From IMG/VR virus record IMGVR_UViG_3300042523_000478, positions 1 to 64,000 of that record: a DNA stretch of 64,000 bases; one strand, 5' to 3'. Every line of letters begins with the position of its first letter. Position 1 is the stretch's first letter. The notes beneath the pieces are model-generated. The model had not been told where the DNA came from and searched no databases. It saw nothing but the letters and a program-made list of their open reading frames with translations. The translations under genes and the position numbers were made by a program. This stretch comes from a virus. Below are positions 8,824-28,455 of the stretch, one piece after another.

Positions 8824-9762
8824 CTATATAATTTCCATTATCTTATTATAAACCGCAAATATTGTTGGGTGACATTCAAATGTTTCTTTTTTTTCAAGAC
8901 AATTTACTAAAGATGGAATACCTTGTATCGATTCCCATTCTCTAACACCATATCTTATATCGGAAGCACAATTTAAACCACATCCACCAACTACATAATG
9001 GTATTTATATTCTTGTGAACCTTTTCTATATGGTGATCTAAACTCAGGATTTATTGAGCTACCTAATTGAATGATATCAACATCTGTTGTTCCTGCCAAA
9101 TGTAATAAACCTGAATCCATTGTGATGAAACACATAGATTTATTAATAAGATGCCAAGTTTGAGATAAACTTGTTTGATTCATTAGGTTCATACCCAATT
9201 CTATTGGAAAATTAAATACGGGTTTATCAACATTGGATCCACCAAGTTCTGATGAATCTTTACCAACTGATACAACGGCAATACCTCTTTCATTTAAAAG
9301 TTTTACAAGTAGTTGCCATTTTTTTGCGTCCCACGTTCTTGAGTTCCAGTTCTGAACGGGATGGATTAAAACATATTTTTCAGGTAAACCTTCAATTGGT
9401 TCATATTGATCTGAAATGTAATCCAATTCCATTTCATCTTTGCTTAACATAAACCCAAGATTAATCGCATGGAATTGTCTAATGTCCATTGCGTTATGTT
9501 TATAACAAACCCCATTTGGATGATATCCAATATTAAATGAATTAAAGATTTCGTATTCTTCTCTTTGTTCATCATTTATTGGGTTGAGTGATTCGTTATA
9601 AACTACATCCACATATGGGTTATTTGAAAATAGATATGGGTGGTGTGTCATCACCGAAATTTTTTTACCGTAAGAATTATAAAGTTTTCTTAACGTTGGT
9701 GTTACCGATAAAGTGTCACCTAACGCCCTACACCCTAACACATCAATACAAACATCTTTCAT
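8824..9762 (-). CDS. GT9-like (heptosyltransferase-fold) glycosyltransferase with C-terminal Cys cluster
   Basis: ALGDTL, YVLIHP...SRTW, FITMDSGLLHLAG; CGLNC...C...FECHP. Confidence 0.75.
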   Translation of the reverse strand: MKDVCIDVLGCRALGDTLSVTPTLRKLYNSYGKKISVMTHHPYLFSNNPYVDVVYNESLNPINDEQREEYEIFNSFNIGYHPNGVCYKHNAMDIRQFHAINLGFMLSKDEMELDYISDQYEPIEGLPEKYVLIHPVQNWNSRTWDAKKWQLLVKLLNERGIAVVSVGKDSSELGGSNVDKPVFNFPIELGMNLMNQTSLSQTWHLINKSMCFITMDSGLLHLAGTTDVDIIQLGSSINPEFRSPYRKGSQEYKYHYVVGGCGLNCASDIRYGVREWESIQGIPSLVNCLEKKETFECHPTIFAVYNKIMEII

Positions 9763-9813
9763 TCTATAATAATATGAACTTCACAATTAAAATGTATGTT
9801 TTATTTTTATAGT

Positions 9814-12800
9814 ATGAAAAAAACTAAAATAGTTTTAATAAGTTCTTATTGTGATACCAAAGAAAAAATTGATGTTTTAATAAATACCATCAAATCCGTT
9901 AAGAGTTACAATTTAGATGTAATGGTAAATAGTCCTTTACCCTTACCTTCCGATGTGATAAATATGTGTGATTTTTATGTGCAAACAAAAGAAAACCCAT
10001 TACTTAATTGGCCCGAAAAATCTGTTATGTCTTGGGTAAGACATACGGACAAAGATAAAGAAATTGTGATTAAAAGATCTGTAATTGATTATGGGTGGGC
10101 GGGACTTTACCAAACTAAAAAATTATCTGAATATGCTTTAACTTATGACTATGACAGATATTATCATATTATATATGATACGGAAATTGATGATACGGTG
10201 GTTTCTACTTTTTTATCTGATAAAATATGTAACTTTTTTCCATTTCATGAACACAAAGTTAGTTTACATTTAATTGCGTTAGACAGAGAAAACCTATTGA
10301 AATTTTCAAATCTGATTACTTTTGATAGTTACCTTAAATTTAATTGTATAGTTGAGAACTGGCTTTATGATACTCTAATTAATAGTAATCTGGATTATAA
10401 AATTGAATTAGAAAAAATTGATGATTTAATATTATTTCATAAAGACGAAAATTTATTTGATTACTCTGATATTAATGGTTTAGTTTTTTTTATAGTTAAA
10501 GATGTTGTAAATAATGATGAGGTTTGTTTATATTTTTACAATAATAAAGAAAAAATAAATGTTTTAATTACCGTAGATGGTGTCGAGTCCTCTTATGATA
10601 TATCCAATAGGGATATCATTAATTTAGGGTTTAAACCATGCAATATAAAAAATGTTTTAATATCTTATGATGGAATATCATCGGATATAACAGAAAAAAT
10701 AAAAAATATTATCCACAATGTTATTGAAATTATTATGAATAAATCAAAAATTAAACTATTATATCTTACACCACACCTATCAACAGGTGGAATGCCTCAA
10801 TTTGTATTAAAAAGAATTCAAGAACTCCAAAAATACAAAGACCAAATTGAAATATTTTTGGTTGAGTATTCTCAGTTTAGTAACACATACGTTGTCCAAC
10901 GAGATAAAATAATTAATCTATTAGGTGAAGGTCATTTTTTTAGTTTAGGTGATACAACCAACACAAAAAGAAAATATGAGTTAATTGATATTATTAAAAA
11001 CAATGATATTGATATTGTCCATTCTGAAGAAATGTTAGAAGGATTTGAAAGTTTTAATAAAATTCCACTACCATTGTTAAATCAACTTTATTCAAATGAT
11101 AGGTCTTGGAAAATGGTTGAGACTTGTCATAATGTTTGGTTTAATCCGCAAACACATAAAAAGTTCAATCCTGAAGCGTATTGTTTTGTTACCCCTTATC
11201 ATTTAAAGGAAACGTTTTTAAATGAAACACCAATTAAGTTTTTATCGTTATACCCAATTGAGAATAAGGTAACTAAAATTTTAGAGGAGAATGAAATCTA
11301 TGGTGATTTTAATCAAGTACCACTTATTGAAAAAATTAAAGTAAGAAATGAACTTGGTTTGGATATGTTTAAAACTCACGTACTTAATGTTGGGTTATGG
11401 ACAAGTGGTAAAAATCAAGGTGAAGGTGTTGAGGTTGCAAGAGAATTAATTGAATCAAATCCAGATATTGAATTCCATTTTATTGGGAACCAAGCTCCAA
11501 ACTTTGAAGACTATTGGGGTCCAATAATGAATAATTTACCATCAAACGTAAAAGTATGGGGTGAGCGTAATGACGTTGAAAAATTCATGACGGCTTGTGA
11601 TGTTTTAATGTTTAACTCAACTTGGGAATGTAATCCGTTGGTTGTTAGAGAATCAATCAACTATGGAATGAAAATCCTTGCAAGAGATTTACCACAATAC
11701 ATGGGTATGTTTGATGGATATATAACACCAATAGAAGGTGATGTTAAAAACATATCAAAACAATTGGTTGGACTTATCGAAAATAAGGACGTTTATAAAA
11801 TATTACCTGATAATACATTTGGTGAAGATTTATTAAATTTTTATAACGCAGTTACAAATATAAAAATTACCCAAAACAAACCATTAACCAAAGATTATAC
11901 TTTTGTTAGACATTATGTTAATCAACCTTATTTTGAGGTACAAGGAACCACAGAAAACAAATTGAACATTAAATATTATGATGATAACAATAATGTTAAT
12001 TATCAGAACGAATTATCAATTAATAGTTGGGTTAAATTAAATAAAGAATACTTTATTAAATGGAGAACAACGGTTGAAGAAAATGGTGAAATCATTTACG
12101 ATGAGACTTTAAATTTAAAAGATAAACGAGTATATATTTCTTTTGGATCAAAATCATTAGGAGATACAATGGCTTGGATTCCTTATTGTGAGGTATTTAG
12201 AAAAAAACATGGTTGTCAACTTATAGTATCAACATTCCTTAATAGTTTGTTTAAAGACCAATATCCTGATATTGAATTTGTTGAACCTGGTGATTTGGTA
12301 ACTAATATACATGCACAATATAGATTAGGTTGGTTTTACAATGAAGATGGTAAATTTGATGCAAACAAACACCCATTTGATTTTAAGAAAATGCCATTAC
12401 AAAAAACTGCAACCGATATATTAGGTTTAGATTATGAAGAAGTTAGACCACTATTAAAATTACCTGATACACCTAAAAAGAAAAAAGTTGGTATTGGGTT
12501 TCACTCAACTGCACAATCAAAATATTGGAACAACCCTGACGGATGGCAAACAGTTATAGACCATCTTAATAATTTGGGATATGAATGTATGGTCTATTCT
12601 AAAGAAGGTGATGGATATATGAATAACCATTATCCTGAAGGTGTAACAATATTTAAAGGAGGTAACCTACAAGAAGTAATTGATGACCTATCAAGTTGTG
12701 AGTTCTTTATTGGTTTAGGGTCTGGTTTATCTTGGTTGGCTTGGGCTTGTAAATTACCTGTCGTTTTGATTTCAGGATTTAGTGAGAAATGGGCGGAAAC

Positions 12801-14289
12801 AACTTTAGATACATACAGAGTTATTAACGAAAGTGTTTGTCATGGATGTTTTAACTCAGATAGATTAGATGCTGGTGATTGGAATTGGTGTCCACTACAT
12901 AAGAATACGGATCGGATGTTTGAATGTACAAAAGAAATAAGTTCCGATATGGTTATTAAAGAAATAAATAAAATAATTAACAAAGAATTTAATAGTGATT
13001 TAGTTACTATTATATTGTCCCATGCAAACACAAAAGAAAAAAGAAAAATTTTAATAGAACATTTAAAAACAATTAACACAAAAATACTACTATCAACAAA
13101 TTACCCAATTGATGATGAAATTAAAGTTTTATGTGATTACGTCATATATGATGAGGATAACCCAATATTATTGAAGGAGGATTTTAATAAGTATAACGTG
13201 TCTTTTTATTTTTATAGTGTCAGAAAAGGGGTTGAGGTAAGGGAGTCTTTTGATTATGAACATGGGTATGCCGTTTATAAATTAATACAAAATGGATTAA
13301 CTGAATCAAAAAAATTAGGATTTAAATATTCTCATATTATAAATTACGATTATTTAATAAACAAAAATACATTACAAGATAATTATAAATTATTAGAAAA
13401 TTACGATTCCGTATTTTATAGATATAAAAATAAATCATATACGCAAGACTCATACTGTACTGGATTTTTTACAGGAAAAATAGATAAGTTAATTAAACCA
13501 TTTACCCACTATAACACAAAAGACGAATATTATAATTATGACGGGTATAATAAAATATTAGAAATAATAACAAAAGATGCGGTAAAAAAACAAAACTTAA
13601 ATGTTAAAGAACTTTTTTATGAAGATTTAATGGAAACATCAATTGTTAATAGAGTAGACGATAACCACAAAAATAACAAAGAAGTAATGGAAGAAAACGA
13701 ATTCAAAAAAATAAGTGATTATTATAATTGCGATAAAACATCCACACACACATACCATAACGTCTATTCAAAAATATTTGAAGGGATAAGAGATGAGGTA
13801 TTTTCGTTATTAGAAATCGGAATTCATGAGGGAGCATCTTTAAATGTTTGGAGAGACTATTTGAAGAATGCTAATATATATGGTTTAGATATCAATAGGG
13901 AATTTTCACATGATAGGGGTCATATTTTTAAAGGAGACCAAAATAACTTATTTGATTTAGAAAAAATCACATCAGAAATAAAAAGTTGTAAAGTCATAAT
14001 TGATGATGCTTCCCATAATCCACAACATCAAATTAAAACCTTTAATTATCTTTTTGAGAATTTATTAGAAGATGGTGGGTACTATATTATTGAAGACGTT
14101 GAAACGTCGTATTGGGATCCATTATCTGAATTATATGGGTATGAAATTGGTTATTTAAATGTTGTTGATTATTTTAGTAAATTAACACATAATGTTAATT
14201 ACAAATACAATGGATTTAATAATACTTTAAAAATTGAAAGCATTTTATTTACATCAAATTGTATTGTGATAAAAAAATTAATGAAATAA
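9814..14289 (+). CDS. multidomain glycan-modifying enzyme: GT-A-like, GT4, Aah/TibC-like, second GT-A-like and O-methyltransferase domains
   Basis: HLSTGGMPQ...KNQG...CDVLMFNSTWECNPLV (GT4); SLGDTMAW...GLGSGLSWLAW...CHGCFN...CP...EC (Aah/TibC-like); CDK...LLEIGI..GAS...IIDDASH (MycE-like methyltransferase). ATG 9814 preferred over 9796. Confidence 0.8.
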   Translation: MKKTKIVLISSYCDTKEKIDVLINTIKSVKSYNLDVMVNSPLPLPSDVINMCDFYVQTKENPLLNWPEKSVMSWVRHTDKDKEIVIKRSVIDYGWAGLYQTKKLSEYALTYDYDRYYHIIYDTEIDDTVVSTFLSDKICNFFPFHEHKVSLHLIALDRENLLKFSNLITFDSYLKFNCIVENWLYDTLINSNLDYKIELEKIDDLILFHKDENLFDYSDINGLVFFIVKDVVNNDEVCLYFYNNKEKINVLITVDGVESSYDISNRDIINLGFKPCNIKNVLISYDGISSDITEKIKNIIHNVIEIIMNKSKIKLLYLTPHLSTGGMPQFVLKRIQELQKYKDQIEIFLVEYSQFSNTYVVQRDKIINLLGEGHFFSLGDTTNTKRKYELIDIIKNNDIDIVHSEEMLEGFESFNKIPLPLLNQLYSNDRSWKMVETCHNVWFNPQTHKKFNPEAYCFVTPYHLKETFLNETPIKFLSLYPIENKVTKILEENEIYGDFNQVPLIEKIKVRNELGLDMFKTHVLNVGLWTSGKNQGEGVEVARELIESNPDIEFHFIGNQAPNFEDYWGPIMNNLPSNVKVWGERNDVEKFMTACDVLMFNSTWECNPLVVRESINYGMKILARDLPQYMGMFDGYITPIEGDVKNISKQLVGLIENKDVYKILPDNTFGEDLLNFYNAVTNIKITQNKPLTKDYTFVRHYVNQPYFEVQGTTENKLNIKYYDDNNNVNYQNELSINSWVKLNKEYFIKWRTTVEENGEIIYDETLNLKDKRVYISFGSKSLGDTMAWIPYCEVFRKKHGCQLIVSTFLNSLFKDQYPDIEFVEPGDLVTNIHAQYRLGWFYNEDGKFDANKHPFDFKKMPLQKTATDILGLDYEEVRPLLKLPDTPKKKKVGIGFHSTAQSKYWNNPDGWQTVIDHLNNLGYECMVYSKEGDGYMNNHYPEGVTIFKGGNLQEVIDDLSSCEFFIGLGSGLSWLAWACKLPVVLISGFSEKWAETTLDTYRVINESVCHGCFNSDRLDAGDWNWCPLHKNTDRMFECTKEISSDMVIKEINKIINKEFNSDLVTIILSHANTKEKRKILIEHLKTINTKILLSTNYPIDDEIKVLCDYVIYDEDNPILLKEDFNKYNVSFYFYSVRKGVEVRESFDYEHGYAVYKLIQNGLTESKKLGFKYSHIINYDYLINKNTLQDNYKLLENYDSVFYRYKNKSYTQDSYCTGFFTGKIDKLIKPFTHYNTKDEYYNYDGYNKILEIITKDAVKKQNLNVKELFYEDLMETSIVNRVDDNHKNNKEVMEENEFKKISDYYNCDKTSTHTYHNVYSKIFEGIRDEVFSLLEIGIHEGASLNVWRDYLKNANIYGLDINREFSHDRGHIFKGDQNNLFDLEKITSEIKSCKVIIDDASHNPQHQIKTFNYLFENLLEDGGYYIIEDVETSYWDPLSELYGYEIGYLNVVDYFSKLTHNVNYKYNGFNNTLKIESILFTSNCIVIKKLMK

Positions 14290-22792: not shown

Positions 22793-23716
22793 TTATGATG
22801 AAACTGTGTTTCCTTTAAAATAAATATTTTCATTATTCGTTAATTTAAATTCAGAACTTGGGTATGATGTATAAACTCTATATGTTGTTTGGAAAATTGT
22901 TGATCCAGTATACGTAAATGTGTTTGAATTAATAGTTGATTCCATATATATTGGTGTAAATATATTTGGGCTACCATTAGAACTTAAATCAATTATTATT
23001 TGTTTTTGGTTATTTGTTAAACTAATTGGGATTACCCAGGTGTACCAAGAATCTCCAGGTATTGTGAATTCAGGAATTTCAGTTGTTGTAAAATTGTATG
23101 CAACAATATTATTACCAAATGAATCTAAACCTCCACTTACTTGAGGTACAGATTTATTTATTATATGTGGGAACTCTCCAGATGTCCAACCACTAAATCC
23201 AACATATCTGTTAAGTTCTGTATTAAATATTGTTTGATTTTGTGTTGGTTGACTATTATTACTAAAACCATAGAAATCAAAACCACCATCATACATCCAT
23301 TGACCCATTAACGTTCCTCCACTTATTGGTTCAATAAACAAGTAAGCCAAGTAAACAGGGGTTGGTGTAGGTGTAGGAGTAACTCCAGGTGTTGGAGTAG
23401 GTGTATTTGTTGGAGTAGGTGTTGGAGTAGGTGTTGGTGTTCTGGTAGGCGTATTTGTTGGTGTTATTGTTGGTGTTGGAGTATTAGTTGGTATTGGTCT
23501 TAATACGTTTAGAATATTTGGACAATCAGAACCTAAAATTAAAATAGTATATGTTCCGTAAACTTCTCTTTCCGGTATTAATAAATTTGGTTGAAAAATA
23601 AACGGTAGAGTTACATCACCCAAATTAATGGTAATGTTATCATTATCCGGTTTAAATAAAATATTCGCTATTTCACCGTCAAAATTTATACTTTGTATTG
23701 TTATTATTTGACTCAT
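22793..23716 (-). CDS. putative virion protein with long Pro-Thr linker
   Basis: 307 aa; PIPTNTPTPTITPTNTPTRTPTPTPTPTPTNTPTPTPGVTPTPTPTP; 12 bp upstream of the giant fibre gene; TATTTATA upstream. Confidence 0.6.
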   Translation of the reverse strand: MSQIITIQSINFDGEIANILFKPDNDNITINLGDVTLPFIFQPNLLIPEREVYGTYTILILGSDCPNILNVLRPIPTNTPTPTITPTNTPTRTPTPTPTPTPTNTPTPTPGVTPTPTPTPVYLAYLFIEPISGGTLMGQWMYDGGFDFYGFSNNSQPTQNQTIFNTELNRYVGFSGWTSGEFPHIINKSVPQVSGGLDSFGNNIVAYNFTTTEIPEFTIPGDSWYTWVIPISLTNNQKQIIIDLSSNGSPNIFTPIYMESTINSNTFTYTGSTIFQTTYRVYTSYPSSEFKLTNNENIYFKGNTVSS

Positions 23717-23747: not shown

Positions 23748-24188
23748 TCATTTTTTCACCTTAATAAAATTATACCACAATCTTTCGTGAGCAAAATATA
23801 TAAATGGTTTTAACACTAACTCACTAACCCCAAGTAATGTTGAGACCCCTATTGATGCCCCTAATGAATACGCAACCCCGACGGTAGTTAAAGTACCTAA
23901 AAACCTATAGGTAATTGTTTTAAGTATATGTCTAACTAAAACAGATTCTTCTTTAATTGTTTTAATATATGCAATATTATTTTTAATTTTACAGTGACCA
24001 ACACAACTAATATGCCATTTATATTCATTTATTTCTGGCAACCAATCTTTTGTGGTATAAGTATTACCATCAATAATAATATCTGAAACTAATATTTCAT
24101 TTCCATTTTCAATCAATCTCCACCTATTATCTTTGGTTTCGGAAACTGTATTAAATCTAATTTGGTAAGTTTTACTTTGTGTTTTCAT
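23748..24188 (-). CDS. DUF2061-like membrane domain protein with N-terminal soluble domain
   Basis: C-terminal ESVLVRHILKTITYRFLGTLTT...YFAHERLW matches the DUF2061 pattern seen near cys genes. Confidence 0.65.
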   Translation of the reverse strand: MKTQSKTYQIRFNTVSETKDNRWRLIENGNEILVSDIIIDGNTYTTKDWLPEINEYKWHISCVGHCKIKNNIAYIKTIKEESVLVRHILKTITYRFLGTLTTVGVAYSLGASIGVSTLLGVSELVLKPFIYFAHERLWYNFIKVKK

Positions 24189-24636
24189 CCGTCAAATAAT
24201 TAATTATATCTTCTTGTATTGATTCGTCAACCATAAATTTCCATTTATCATCTTCTTTTGATATTGAGTTTCTAATACCTGTTGCGGAAATAAAACCAAT
24301 ATTATCTGGAGGAGTAAATTCATTTATTTCATACCCAACACCTCTACCGTAATTAACAGATTCAATATCTGGAATAACAATAACCTTAACATTATCACCT
24401 TTTGATTTGTGATATTTCTCAATCATTGTAACGGTTTGTTCTGTTGTAAATGGATTTTTATCATCAGGTTCAATATCTCTAACCATAATAAGGGCCGGAA
24501 TACCTTGATTTAATTTTTGTTGTATTAACTCTATATGACCATAATGATATGGTTGGAAACGGCCTATAAAGATTGCATATTTCTTACTTTCATTCGTTGT
24601 AGGATTTCCTCCATGATTTTTAACTTCCCAGGTCAT
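24172..24636 (-). CDS. HxGH nucleotidyltransferase (cytidylyltransferase-like); candidate ATP sulfurylase
   Basis: FIGRFQPYHYGH, KNPF, YGRGVGY, ISATGIR; overlaps the cysC stop. Confidence 0.7.
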   Translation of the reverse strand: MTWEVKNHGGNPTTNESKKYAIFIGRFQPYHYGHIELIQQKLNQGIPALIMVRDIEPDDKNPFTTEQTVTMIEKYHKSKGDNVKVIVIPDIESVNYGRGVGYEINEFTPPDNIGFISATGIRNSISKEDDKWKFMVDESIQEDIINYLTDENTK

Positions 24637-25088
24637 AAATTTTCAATTATTTTGTTTAAAGATATTTGAGGGTCAACATTTGTGGTATCAATGTCAATAA
24701 AGTTTTCTGTTGGTTGTTCATATTCGTCAGTATGAAAATGTTCTCTACCTCTAATGTCTGTAGTATGAACATAAAACTCTACAAGTAAATCACCTAAATC
24801 GTACTTAAAACTTTCTCTAAGTTCTTTATATGGAGCAACTAAACTAACGATAACAGTATGTCCTTGGGCTAAGATAAATTTTGCAATGTCTTGAGCTCTT
24901 TTAATATTTTCCTCACGACCTTCTCTACCATATTTTTGGTTGTTAAATAACGATCTAAGTTCATCCCCATCAATATGAAAAACTTTATTTTTATCTTCTA
25001 AAACCGTTTTTAACATTAAAGACAAAACTGTCTTTCCTGCCCCAGGTTGACCAGTAAACCAATATATTTTATTATCTCTCATAATCAA
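24633..25088 (-). CDS. cysC: adenylylsulfate (APS) kinase
   Basis: YWFTGQPGAGKT P-loop, IDGDELR, GREENI, VSLVAPY, YEQP. Confidence 0.85.
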   Translation of the reverse strand: MIMRDNKIYWFTGQPGAGKTVLSLMLKTVLEDKNKVFHIDGDELRSLFNNQKYGREGREENIKRAQDIAKFILAQGHTVIVSLVAPYKELRESFKYDLGDLLVEFYVHTTDIRGREHFHTDEYEQPTENFIDIDTTNVDPQISLNKIIENL

Positions 25089-25903
25089 AAATATCCAAAT
25101 TGGTCATAAAACCATTGGTAATTACTTTTAATCCAGTTTGAGGCATTAACACCCAAAACTTCTTTATAATCACTTTTAATAGGTTCTATTTTACTTTTTA
25201 TTGTATGGTCACCGTATACCCCATAAACCTCATCATCTTCTTGAGTTATTTGTTCCACATTATTAAAGTCGTGTTCAAAATATGGAAGTTCTAAATAATT
25301 GTATATTCTTTGCATCTCCTTTTTTGGGTTTGATGTAAAGTCCTCAAATTTTACAAACAAAACATTTTGGTTAATACCCTCTTTAAACATTTGATATAAC
25401 CTTTCTAATGACATACCAACAGGTTGTGACTGAGCCCAAATATCAATCCTTTTTTCTGTTGTGGTTCCTTTCATTTGTGAGTGGTCAACCAAACCAGAAT
25501 CCTTATGTTGGTTTTTTCTAAAGTTTTTCTCCATTGAAGAGAATATTCCTCTTAAATCTCTAACCATACAAATAATTTTTGGATTTGGATAGAATGAATT
25601 TAAAAACCCATAATGTACTCCCCACCCTCTACTTTTATCTAAAACGTAAGGTTTATCGGTTACACCATTAAAAAATCCTAACATACCCTGATTACAGAAA
25701 TTTAAAAACCCACTCTTCATTAATTCAGGGTCTTGAGCTTTAAATTCTGGAGATGTGGAATAGTTTGATCTTGATGCGTAAACTAATTCTAAAACACCAG
25801 ATGTTGGTGTTACATAAAAATCGGGATTCTGACCCATTACGTTTTGTAGTAGTGTTGATCCAGCTCTTGGTAATGAGCTTTGAAAAAATATCTTTTGTAC
25901 CAT
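25085..25903 (-). CDS. PAPS-dependent sulfotransferase
   Basis: SSLPRAGSTLL (5'-PSB loop), DKSR, MVRDLRGIFSS (3'-PB), VKFEDF. Confidence 0.85.
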   Translation of the reverse strand: MVQKIFFQSSLPRAGSTLLQNVMGQNPDFYVTPTSGVLELVYASRSNYSTSPEFKAQDPELMKSGFLNFCNQGMLGFFNGVTDKPYVLDKSRGWGVHYGFLNSFYPNPKIICMVRDLRGIFSSMEKNFRKNQHKDSGLVDHSQMKGTTTEKRIDIWAQSQPVGMSLERLYQMFKEGINQNVLFVKFEDFTSNPKKEMQRIYNYLELPYFEHDFNNVEQITQEDDEVYGVYGDHTIKSKIEPIKSDYKEVLGVNASNWIKSNYQWFYDQFGYF

Positions 25904-25908
25904 AATTA

Positions 25909-26790
25909 TTATTTTAAACTTTCTATTATTTCATTTATGTCAAAAATGTTTGTATCAAACATAGGGCATTCGTGTACTGTACCATTAAAATTATAATCAA
26001 ATAAATAACTATCTGGTAATTTAACGGTTGTGGGTAATGTTGCAATTATATTGTTATGTAAATTATAACCAAATACTATTGGTGATGTCCCTACCCATAA
26101 AACAGTTGATTGTAACCCCATTGCTGCCGATGCGTGTTGCAAACAAGAGTCAATTAATATTCTTTTTTGAGAATAGGCCAGTAAGGAAAATAATTCCATA
26201 TTTGACATTGATTCAAAAAACGCCTCCACATTATTTAACACATTTGATTTATCTCTACATATTTGGATAATATGATAATATTTTGAGAAGTGGTCAACTA
26301 ATTTCTGGGCAACATCATAAGGAATATCTCTAGTCCAAGAATATGGGAACGGTTGTTCTTGTAGTGGTCCTCCGTTTGTTTGAATAACCATTACTGGTTT
26401 ATCTCTTGCCCACTTATTCTGAGCTATTTGTTGTTGCCTTAAATTAAAAGAAAGGGATGGTTGTTCTCCATTATATTCTAATCCAAGTAACTTACACCAG
26501 TTAACAATTAGAGGTAATTTTTTATTAATATGGTCCGATGTAAAATATGGTTCGTGTTTAAAAATTAAACTTTCCTTATCTTTAATGTAATCATCATAAA
26601 AATAAGGTGTCATACCAACACGATAAACCCTATCAACATAATCCAAATTTAAAAACACTTCCGGATATGCACAAACTATTATTAGTTCTCTATCCGGATG
26701 ATTATTTTTTATACATTTTGCAACCGCGGTTGATAAAACATGTTTACCTAAACCACCCTCTACGTGAAATATACTATATTTTTTTTCCAT
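25909..26790 (-). CDS. GT9-like glycosyltransferase
   Basis: GGLGKHV, IQTNGG, LIDSCLQHASAAMG, VLW..T.P..FGY. Confidence 0.7.
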   Translation of the reverse strand: MEKKYSIFHVEGGLGKHVLSTAVAKCIKNNHPDRELIIVCAYPEVFLNLDYVDRVYRVGMTPYFYDDYIKDKESLIFKHEPYFTSDHINKKLPLIVNWCKLLGLEYNGEQPSLSFNLRQQQIAQNKWARDKPVMVIQTNGGPLQEQPFPYSWTRDIPYDVAQKLVDHFSKYYHIIQICRDKSNVLNNVEAFFESMSNMELFSLLAYSQKRILIDSCLQHASAAMGLQSTVLWVGTSPIVFGYNLHNNIIATLPTTVKLPDSYLFDYNFNGTVHECPMFDTNIFDINEIIESLK

Positions 26791-26810: not shown

Positions 26811-27719
26811 TTAACTATTAGTAAAGTTAATTACTTGGTTTATTTTATTAATAACCATTTCTGGTGTTATACTCCTATGACATTCATTTTCTCTTTCAGT
26901 GTTTAAAAATATTGGACAACTACTTTTAATGTTTGGAAACATATTAAAACATCCGTTACATACATAAGGATTTTCAACTCTAAAACATTCAAACTCGTTT
27001 TGTTTTTTAGTGAAGTTTGATATCATAACAACAGGAACTCCATACGCCCACGCCAACCAAGATAACCCAGAAGATAAACCAATAAAAAATCTTGATTCTA
27101 AAATATGATTTAATGAAACATTTATATCGTTGTTTCCGTGAAATCCTTTTGCGTTTTGTAAATTTAATGTATTTTCATACGAAACATTATAAACATCAAA
27201 ATTACTATTAACCAATTCATTTATGATTGTTTGCCAACCATCCTTATATTCCCATTTTGATATTTCCTTTATTGTTTCAGGACCCATCGTTATTTTATTT
27301 TTATTTATGATTCTTTGTTTGGGTATTACTGGACATTTACCTGGTTTTGTTTCTTGAGGTAAGAACATTGTATCTTTTGCAGCATAAAACATTCCACCAA
27401 GAGTATGGGACATATTATCTTTATGGTACCCAACATCAATTAACTTATCTATCTCAATAGATTTAGATTGATTTGCGTTTATAAACTCATACTTTGGATT
27501 TGTTGACTTTAGTAAGTGGGGGAAGAATGTTGATATATAAACTTTTTTTGGTTTATGATATTCCATAAACGGGTCTATAAGGGATGAAAAACATATCGTA
27601 TCTCCCAAACAAAAAGAATCAAAATGTAATAAAAGTTCTTTATCTTTAAAATTAGATAAATTAGGATCTCTTTCAGTATATTTTAATAGTTCTGAATTAT
27701 CGTAATGTCTTTTAACCAT
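26811..27719 (-). CDS. Aah/TibC-like autotransporter heptosyltransferase-family glycosyltransferase
   Basis: CLGDTI, ISTFF, FIGLSSGLSWLAW, VVMISNFT, CNGCFN...CP...ECHRSITPEMV. Confidence 0.75.
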   Translation of the reverse strand: MVKRHYDNSELLKYTERDPNLSNFKDKELLLHFDSFCLGDTICFSSLIDPFMEYHKPKKVYISTFFPHLLKSTNPKYEFINANQSKSIEIDKLIDVGYHKDNMSHTLGGMFYAAKDTMFLPQETKPGKCPVIPKQRIINKNKITMGPETIKEISKWEYKDGWQTIINELVNSNFDVYNVSYENTLNLQNAKGFHGNNDINVSLNHILESRFFIGLSSGLSWLAWAYGVPVVMISNFTKKQNEFECFRVENPYVCNGCFNMFPNIKSSCPIFLNTERENECHRSITPEMVINKINQVINFTNS

Positions 27720-28455
27720 TTTTTAATTTAAGAATTTTAGAATAATAATCAAACCAATATTTTTCTTGCCAAATTGTTCCTTCTTCTAAAAAGACCAATG
27801 GTTTGTTTTGCCAAGGTTTTTTTGCAATAAAATGTAATATTTTAATATATTTAGGTAAACCCGAATTTTTAAATATTTCTTTAGAATATGTTTTTAAATA
27901 ATTGTATTCGATAGAAATTGGGGTGATAATATCACTAAAGTAGTGGTCAATAATATCTTGGTCTAAATGTTCTGTAATTCCATAAATTGTTGTTAAATGA
28001 ATTAAATCATTTGTTATTTTTTCATTTAAAAATTCTTTACTAATTACCATTACCCCAGTGTTATATTGGTCAATATAAAGTTCTCTTACTGCACCAAAAG
28101 GTTTTTCATAATCAATCAAATAATCTATGTTACCTAATACAACAATGTCACAATCTAAAAATATAATCTTATCAAATTCCGTTAATGAAAAAATTTCATA
28201 TTTTGTATAATCACCAAACATTCTTTGTTGGTCTTTTAATTTTTCTATCTCAAAATATTTTTCAGTATCAAACTTTTTTATATGAATATTGTTGTATATT
28301 TTTCTTGAGGTAATTAAATCTTCAGGGTTTAAATCGTTACTAATTATAACAAATGGAATATTTTCATTTACAACTCTTGGGTTGTTATCAATTAATGATT
28401 TTAACATTACTTCAAACCCGATTAGATAATCTTTATTACAAACACTTACAAACAT
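27712..28455 (-). CDS. GT8 family glycosyltransferase
   Basis: YTKYEIF, IIFLDCD, YNTGVMV, DQDII, YN, ILHF..KKPW. Confidence 0.85.
   Translation of the reverse strand: MFVSVCNKDYLIGFEVMLKSLIDNNPRVVNENIPFVIISNDLNPEDLITSRKIYNNIHIKKFDTEKYFEIEKLKDQQRMFGDYTKYEIFSLTEFDKIIFLDCDIVVLGNIDYLIDYEKPFGAVRELYIDQYNTGVMVISKEFLNEKITNDLIHLTTIYGITEHLDQDIIDHYFSDIITPISIEYNYLKTYSKEIFKNSGLPKYIKILHFIAKKPWQNKPLVFLEEGTIWQEKYWFDYYSKILKLKNG

Follow-up and report, generated by a model that had tools for sequence, protein, structure and literature searches.

Sulfate assimilation, dissimilatory sulfate reduction and all sulfation reactions begin with the activation of sulfate. Textbooks and the current literature know only Sat and CysDN for this step, two non-homologous enzymes according to a 2018 survey (PMC6286981). 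Here we analyse a 64,000-nucleotide stretch of DNA from a large uncultured phage (hereafter the window), positions 1 to 64,000 of the 91,986-base IMG/VR virus record IMGVR_UViG_3300042523_000478 (CheckV completeness ~31%), in which four overlapping minus-strand open reading frames (ORFs) at 23748-25903 encode a sulfotransferase, a short adenosine 5'-phosphosulfate (APS) kinase, a small nucleotidyltransferase with a HIGH motif (NTase) and a protein with a DUF2061 domain. On the evidence of domain content and gene context, we think it quite likely that these four genes form a cassette that makes and uses 3'-phosphoadenosine 5'-phosphosulfate (PAPS), in which the 154-amino-acid (aa) NTase acts as a minimal ATP sulfurylase that feeds the APS kinase.

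Among the described enzymes, Sat (EC 2.7.7.4; PF01747; structures 1v47 and, from yeast, 1j70) and the Sat-CysC PAPS synthases (Aquifex 2gks, human PAPSS1 1x6v) share with the NTase the HIGH scaffold, an HxxH signature and an S-x-T-x-x-R motif, and the genomic partners of the NTase are Sat-like, namely APS kinase (including as a fusion), APS reductase and CysQ. Sat is nevertheless a protein of ~350-400 aa with a PUA-like N-domain whereas the NTase is a single domain, its motifs QxRNPxHxxH and GRDHAG contrast with GRFQPYHYGH, in a NadM-type context, and with an invariant G-R-G-V-G-Y loop at the site of the Sat loop in the NTase, and the closest relatives of the NTase are not Sat but nicotinamide mononucleotide (NMN) adenylyltransferases (NMNATs). 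CysDN holds the same position in the pathway as is proposed for the NTase, and CysD and the NTase are mutually exclusive in the phylum we sampled and in the NTase-bearing Bacteroidota; its fold, however, is unrelated, CysN being a GTPase and CysD an ATP pyrophosphatase that resembles PAPS reductase, and the NTase has no GTPase partner. The NadM-type NMNATs (MJ0541, 1f9a; M. thermautotrophicus, 1ej2; Francisella NadM-Nudix, 2qjt) provide the best match in sequence and fold and share GRFQPxHxGH, NPFT and SxTxIR with the NTase, but the latter has an additional near-invariant arginine, R53, and stands in a context of sulfur rather than NAD metabolism. A further counterpart is found in the phrog_10255 fusions of Xylella, Xanthomonas and Stenotrophomonas phages, annotated as 'kinase' or 'adenylylsulfate kinase', in which a P-loop kinase is likewise followed by a HIGH NTase. 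The kinase and NTase of the window match the respective halves of the phrog_10255 profile (tblastn identity 31-41%), although these fusions are much more distant and the Xylella phage Bacata has no annotated sulfotransferase.

The association between the NTase and APS kinase extends well beyond the window. Of 66 IMG/VR loci, nearly all have a gene for APS kinase immediately upstream of the NTase, even where NTase identity has fallen to 45%, and this gene encodes a short kinase, a canonical CysC, a fusion of CysC with a haloacid dehalogenase (HAD)-like domain, or a single 299-aa CysC-NTase fusion. When the family is represented by 150 sequences at 50% identity, 52 of them have a length of 230 aa or more, and 45 of these carry an APS_kinase domain, in kinase-NTase order in 32 and in NTase-kinase order in 13; fusion of the two must therefore have arisen at least twice. 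Fusions in both orders recall the Sat-CysC fusions of PAPS synthases; a survey of cysC fusions and adjacency had been proposed as a check in a preliminary description of this locus. Other long proteins have different partners: P0127, P0162 and P0203 (~375 aa) and P0140 (249 aa) join the NTase either to an N-terminal region of ~240 aa that matches no Pfam profile and no PDB sequence, or to DUF6717.

The kinase itself is readily assigned. All 22 of its 22 PDB matches are APS kinases, it matches PF01583, and its P-loop, DGDxxR (DGDELR), REENIKR (RxENIRR-like) and SLVAPY..R (SLVAPYKELR; ISPY..R-like) motifs align to the APS kinases of M. thermolithotrophicus and Synechocystis. At 151 aa it is shorter than canonical CysC, with part of the lid region absent, and it scores under the NCBIfam equivalog cut-offs. 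The same slot of the cassette holds a canonical full-length CysC (215-228 bits) in related phages and a CysC-HAD fusion in some, and the sulfotransferase is kept beside the kinase in related viral loci. In one group of loci (L008-L013; L012:5031-5996), a 321-aa protein comprising canonical CysC and the HAD-like domain is encoded directly upstream of the NTase; the HAD-like domain could be a PAP (3'-phosphoadenosine 5'-phosphate) phosphatase or a pyrophosphatase.

The DNA at the gene junctions points to translational coupling. The sulfotransferase and kinase genes meet in a TTGA overlap, or in an alternative ATG 2 nt past the stop, the kinase and NTase genes in an ATGA overlap, and the NTase and DUF2061 genes in a 17-nt overlap; because starts and stops overlap in this way, we regard the four genes as translationally coupled. 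ORF coordinates, Pfam matches and these junctions bear out the four overlapping genes of the preliminary description, exactly at the positions it gave. It had also remarked on the lack of sat and cysDN in the window, and this holds more widely: neither PF01747 (Sat) nor PF01507 (CysD/CysH) has a match in the entire 91,986-base record, or in 20 related NTase-bearing viral records, three of which are 95-100% complete at 304-385 kb. Among these relatives, a 304-kb record with a CheckV completeness of 100% carries the same cassette; its NTase shares 88% identity with that of the window, and neither profile has a match in it. Since these records lack both, the NTase-bearing phages would make PAPS for sulfation rather than for sulfate reduction.

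Cellular genomes, which we scanned with an NTase profile built from nine sequences, likewise place the family in sulfur metabolism. The cellular homologues show 63-74% identity. In marine Bacteroidota, CysC is encoded directly upstream of the NTase, and one such locus comprises CysC, the NTase, an unknown gene, a CysQ-like gene of the inositol phosphatase family and a polysaccharide flippase. A different arrangement occurs in marine Bacteroidota single-amplified genomes (L082:5602-6000; also L083, L088 and L092), where an unrelated 132-aa CTP_transf_like gene, 18% identical to the NTase, is inserted between CysC and the NTase, and genes for S-adenosylmethionine synthetase and S-adenosylhomocysteine hydrolase follow. 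Four marine Nitrospiraceae loci have the conserved order sulfite reductase, CysH, NTase, and this CysH carries CC, SIGCAPCT (SxGCxxCT) and ECGLH, which together we take to be the signature of an Fe-S APS reductase. A sulfurylase is all that this operon lacks, and the NTase would therefore fill the sole missing step of APS-dependent assimilation. At one of these loci (L070:2689-5157), the sulfite reductase has 822 aa and combines two NIR_SIR modules with a TusA domain at its C-terminus.

The distribution of the NTase across genomes is complementary to that of the known sulfurylases. Four complete Dadabacteria chromosomes encode CysC (~230 bits) and CysH (~150 bits), and neither Sat nor CysD was found in them; they also hold other strong CTP_transf_like matches besides the NTase, which probably represent NadD, CoaD or similar enzymes. 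In a sample of 120 genomes from the phylum of the Dadabacteria, the NTase is present in 78 (~190-206 bits), Sat in 18 and CysD in 15, and these sets of genomes do not overlap (Fisher p = 1e-21, uncorrected for phylogeny). Of the 78 NTase-bearing genomes, 74 keep CysC. Six NTase-bearing Bacteroidota genomes lack CysD, and Sat was found in none of the five that were searched for it, whereas 66 of 81 genomes in the family to which the NTase-bearing Bacteroidota belong do encode CysD. Within the Flavobacteriales the NTase occurs in 3 of 101 genomes sampled at the order level and 2 of 81 at the family level, numbers too small for a strong second statistical test.

In sequence, the NTase combines conserved catalytic motifs with features peculiar to its family. 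GRFQPYHYGH (residues 25-34) and ISATGIR (residues 116-122) are conserved family-wide, and R53 and the loop G97-R98-x-V-G-Y102 are near-invariant and family-specific. Compared with the NMNAT of M. jannaschii, the family has ~27 residues fewer before the ISxTxxR motif, and the DIxxNxxW segment of NMNATs is replaced by the invariant G-R-x-V-G-Y loop; in the HMMER alignment to 1f9a, the G-R-G of the NTase falls over the I-W of NMNAT. The tryptophan of DIxxNxxW is the stacking residue of the NMN-binding segment. The NTase thus has the GRFQPFHxGH-type and SxTxIR motifs of the archaeal/NadM enzymes, but lacks DIxxNxxW and the full-length core of ~168-180 aa and falls below the curated NCBIfam cut-offs (NF002243: 8e-13, 48.3 bits against 127; TIGR01527: 2e-11, 43.4 bits against 181.2).

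An AlphaFold2 model of the NTase (pLDDT 90) forms a single alpha/beta domain. VIA-align superimposes it over its whole extent on the catalytic domain of T. thermophilus Sat with bound APS (1v47_B, residues 151-347) with a Z of 10.1 over 130 aligned residues and a root-mean-square deviation of 3.3 A, on the Aquifex Sat-APS kinase (2gks) with a Z of 8.1, on other Sat structures with a Z of 6.8-7.1, and on the heptose-1-phosphate enzyme HldC (5x9q) with a Z of 5.4. Sat surfaced solely in VIA-align; in a Foldseek search of the PDB, only NMNAT and phosphopantetheine adenylyltransferase (PPAT) came near the top. PF01747 does not match the NTase of the window. When the alignment of the family was compared with ten Sat domains in hhalign, the probability was only 9.6%, and two distant relatives score 26 and 23.8 bits on PF01747, in partial alignments. 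Of the hallmarks of Sat, the NTase therefore has the fold of the catalytic domain and lacks the PF01747 match, QxRNPxHxxH and GRDHAG, and the multi-domain architecture of ~350-400 aa. It is a minimal member of the superfamily to which Sat belongs, derived from NMNAT-like ancestors and outside the Sat family. The family comprises 2957 clusters at 90% identity within the length range searched, named at most 'cytidyltransferase-like', and a literature search found no description of it as a sulfurylase.

These data are consistent with the following mechanism. The HIGH (HxGH) and ISxTxxR motifs would form the ATP-binding scaffold common to NMNAT, PPAT and Sat, with the family-specific arginines R53 and R98 as the putative sulfate ligands, and the NTase would move AMP from ATP onto sulfate to yield APS and pyrophosphate. 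The translationally coupled short APS kinase would convert APS to PAPS at once and so pull the unfavourable first step, and the sulfotransferase would spend the PAPS on an acceptor, probably a glycan or a protein of the adjoining block of glycosyltransferase and fibre genes. A previously undescribed enzyme family would then stand at the first step of PAPS synthesis. We further consider it probable that this family of NMNAT-derived proteins, with lengths of ~130-155 aa, represents a third class of ATP sulfurylase that evolved independently of Sat and CysDN, which serves as the sole sulfate activator of whole lineages (Dadabacteria and some streamlined marine Bacteroidota) and as a second isoenzyme dedicated to assimilation in marine Nitrospiraceae, and which large marine phages carry with a DUF2061 partner for host-independent PAPS supply. 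The proposal of the preliminary description that a small NMNAT-like enzyme makes APS is supported by each of the comparative tests made, namely kinase adjacency, kinase fusion in both orders, the sulfite reductase-APS reductase operon, the CysC-NTase-CysQ cluster and the exclusion of Sat and CysD in genomes that keep CysC and CysH; that the unit is self-contained stays a conjecture, as Sat co-occurs with the NTase in some genomes.

Several observations weigh against a sulfurylase. By sequence, the nearest relatives of the NTase are the NadM/archaeal NMNATs (PDB 2qjt and 1f9a, ~4e-06; profile E-value 7e-14), the NPFT motif common with NMNAT is kept, and the top fold in VIA-align is the M. jannaschii NMNAT (Z 13.9, 27% identity). 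Three Nitrospiraceae genomes and one gammaproteobacterial metagenome-assembled genome hold both the NTase and a canonical Sat, so the NTase is not always the only sulfurylase and the complementarity is not universal; in the Nitrospiraceae, Sat is part of an open frame of ~580 aa, and a check of one genome showed an APS kinase domain in this frame as well, and the co-occurrence would be compatible with two dedicated isoenzymes. The exclusion pattern in the 120 genomes follows clades and may reflect few evolutionary events. Some ~30 mostly small viral contigs (L037-L068, e.g. L044:5522-9413) encode a short APS-kinase-like protein and a 133-135-aa NTase followed by an N6/N4 DNA methylase and a protein with weak similarity to DHH, and no sulfotransferase could be recognised in the 6 kb around them. 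The phrog_10255 fusion of Bacata (L001:5578-6318), which like that of the Stenotrophomonas phage DLP6 (L002:4590-5321) is ~245 aa long, adjoins a COG3236/NADAR-like gene rather than sulfur genes, and these fusions may belong to some pathway that is not sulfation. Finally, with APS provided by its host, a phage could do without a sulfurylase gene.

Some of these contexts would also fit an accessory role, in which the NTase serves APS kinase or PAPS metabolism by binding or recycling an adenine nucleotide by-product, or belongs in some lineages to a kinase-NTase pathway unrelated to sulfate. The genomes with both NTase and Sat, the kinase-NTase pairs beside a methylase and a DHH-like gene, and the phrog_10255 fusions next to COG3236/NADAR are what such a role would lead one to expect. 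Yet the intact HxGH and SxTxIR motifs indicate catalytic nucleotidyl transfer with release of pyrophosphate, we know of no PAP or AMP recycling step that uses this chemistry, and the 74 NTase-bearing genomes that keep CysC would be left without a source of APS; we therefore judge an accessory role very unlikely.

The surroundings of the cassette bring in a different substrate. The NTase might activate another phosphate compound for the glycan and fibre block, such as heptose-1-phosphate for a TibC-like enzyme, as HldC does, or another nucleotide-linked donor, with host APS feeding the phage kinase; the preliminary description had named activation of a sugar phosphate as its alternative. HldC and domain II of HldE are small CTP_transf_like enzymes, the cassette shares one gene string with a TibC-like heptosyltransferase and a GT8 glycosyltransferase, and related phage loci are rich in glycosyltransferases. 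What persists across phages and bacteria, however, is the link to APS kinase, CysH and CysQ and not to heptosyltransferases, the cellular homologues have no heptose context, the model is closer to Sat than to HldC in Z, and the Dadabacteria with CysC and CysH but no sulfurylase would be left unexplained. This alternative fits only the neighbourhood in this phage, and we give it little credence. The least probable of the alternatives is a NadM/archaeal-type NMN or nicotinic acid mononucleotide (NaMN) adenylyltransferase that supplies NAD during infection, with cysC adjacent by coincidence or for regulation: its NMNAT-like matches, fold and motifs, and the phage NadM-Nudix enzymes common among its distant matches, are offset by scores far under the cut-offs, the loss of ~27 residues and of DIxxNxxW, the want of NAD-salvage genes nearby, the 45 APS kinase fusions in both orders, an NTase in a sulfite reductase-APS reductase operon, and Dadabacteria that already hold other strong CTP_transf_like matches, probably including NadD.

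A minimal ATP sulfurylase thus remains our preferred reading of the NTase, and the arrangement of the genes around it in the window is given in the table below.

Features of the PAPS cassette and its neighbours in the window (all positions are those of the window)
Feature	Position	Strand	Evidence and remarks
Sulfotransferase, 272 aa	25085..25903	-	Pfam Sulfotransfer_3 1.9e-21, Sulfotransfer_1 7e-12; phrog_27463 1.7e-42; first of the four overlapping genes
Short APS kinase, 151 aa	24633..25088	-	Pfam APS_kinase 8.4e-19, 68.5 bits against a cut-off of 21.1
HIGH-motif nucleotidyltransferase (NTase), candidate minimal ATP sulfurylase, 154 aa	24172..24636	-	Pfam CTP_transf_like 6.1e-08
DUF2061 protein, 146 aa	23748..24188	-	Pfam DUF2061 2.8e-13, residues 88-138
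293-aa protein	25909..26790	-	No Pfam match; weak phrog_8954 match
Aah/TibC-like O-heptosyltransferase homologue	26811..27719	-	NCBIfam TIGR04414 2e-36, below cut-off; same gene string, upstream
GT8 glycosyltransferase	27712..28455	-	Pfam Glyco_transf_8 3.8e-22; same gene string, upstream
PT-linker protein	22793..23716	-	ORF and Pro/Thr-rich stretch; directly downstream of the cassette
Collagen-like fibre protein (G-T-S/N repeat), 2803 aa	14369..22780	-	ORF and translation; downstream

On the coding strand, the order is GT8, the TibC-like homologue, the 293-aa protein, the four-gene cassette, the PT-linker protein and the 2803-aa collagen-like protein, which agrees with the earlier placement of the cassette just upstream of the PT-linker and giant fibre genes. 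GT8 and the TibC-like homologue are syntenic in close relatives, and the 293-aa protein adjoins the sulfotransferase in other phage loci, including those where the two are flipped with respect to the NTase (L016, L032, L033 and L035). The N-terminus of the PT-linker protein is conserved downstream of DUF2061 in relatives, and this protein is a possible target or structural neighbour. The gene for the 2803-aa protein has a GC content of ~45%, compared with ~30% in the rest of the window, and long spurious ORFs on the opposite strand. Together with the TibC-like homologue, further glycosyltransferase-like genes lie near beta-helix and collagen-like fibre genes (positions noted for this whole group: 26811-27719, 25909-26790, 8824-9762 and 9796-14289); of these transferases, the check covered the one at 26811-27719. 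A blastn search of the cassette against a phage collection gave no match, and of ten large ORFs in the window compared with PHROGs, hardly any had one.

The fourth gene of the cassette appears to be peculiar to the phages. In many of them a DUF2061 gene directly follows the NTase, either in a long form or as the hairpin alone (67-76 aa). The AlphaFold2 model of the long form in the window has seven beta strands and two long helices, laid out as a beta-rich N-terminal domain of ~80 aa followed by the two-helix DUF2061 hairpin, and residues R86, H87, K90, R95, K127, H134, E135 and W138 are invariant. Fold searches returned generic helical hairpins only (Z below 7), matches in the protein atlas were DUF2061 clusters only, no longer proteins with the hairpin fused to something else emerged when they were searched for, and a literature search found no link between DUF2061 and sulfur. 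DUF2061 was not found in four NTase-bearing Dadabacteria chromosomes and one Nitrospiraceae genome; because it is absent from these five cellular genomes, the NTase does not need it. We regard the protein as a phage-specific accessory; that it may be a membrane tether is a guess.

If the NTase is a sulfurylase, pathway reconstructions would have to be corrected for many marine and sediment bacteria that encode CysC and CysH and are now scored as unable to use sulfate, and thousands of 'cytidyltransferase-like' proteins would gain a function. Enzymatic regeneration of PAPS could also draw on a sulfurylase of very small size or on its ~300-aa fusion with the kinase. For the phages themselves, it would mean that large phages bring everything needed to supply PAPS for the sulfation of surface structures, be these their own or those of their hosts.

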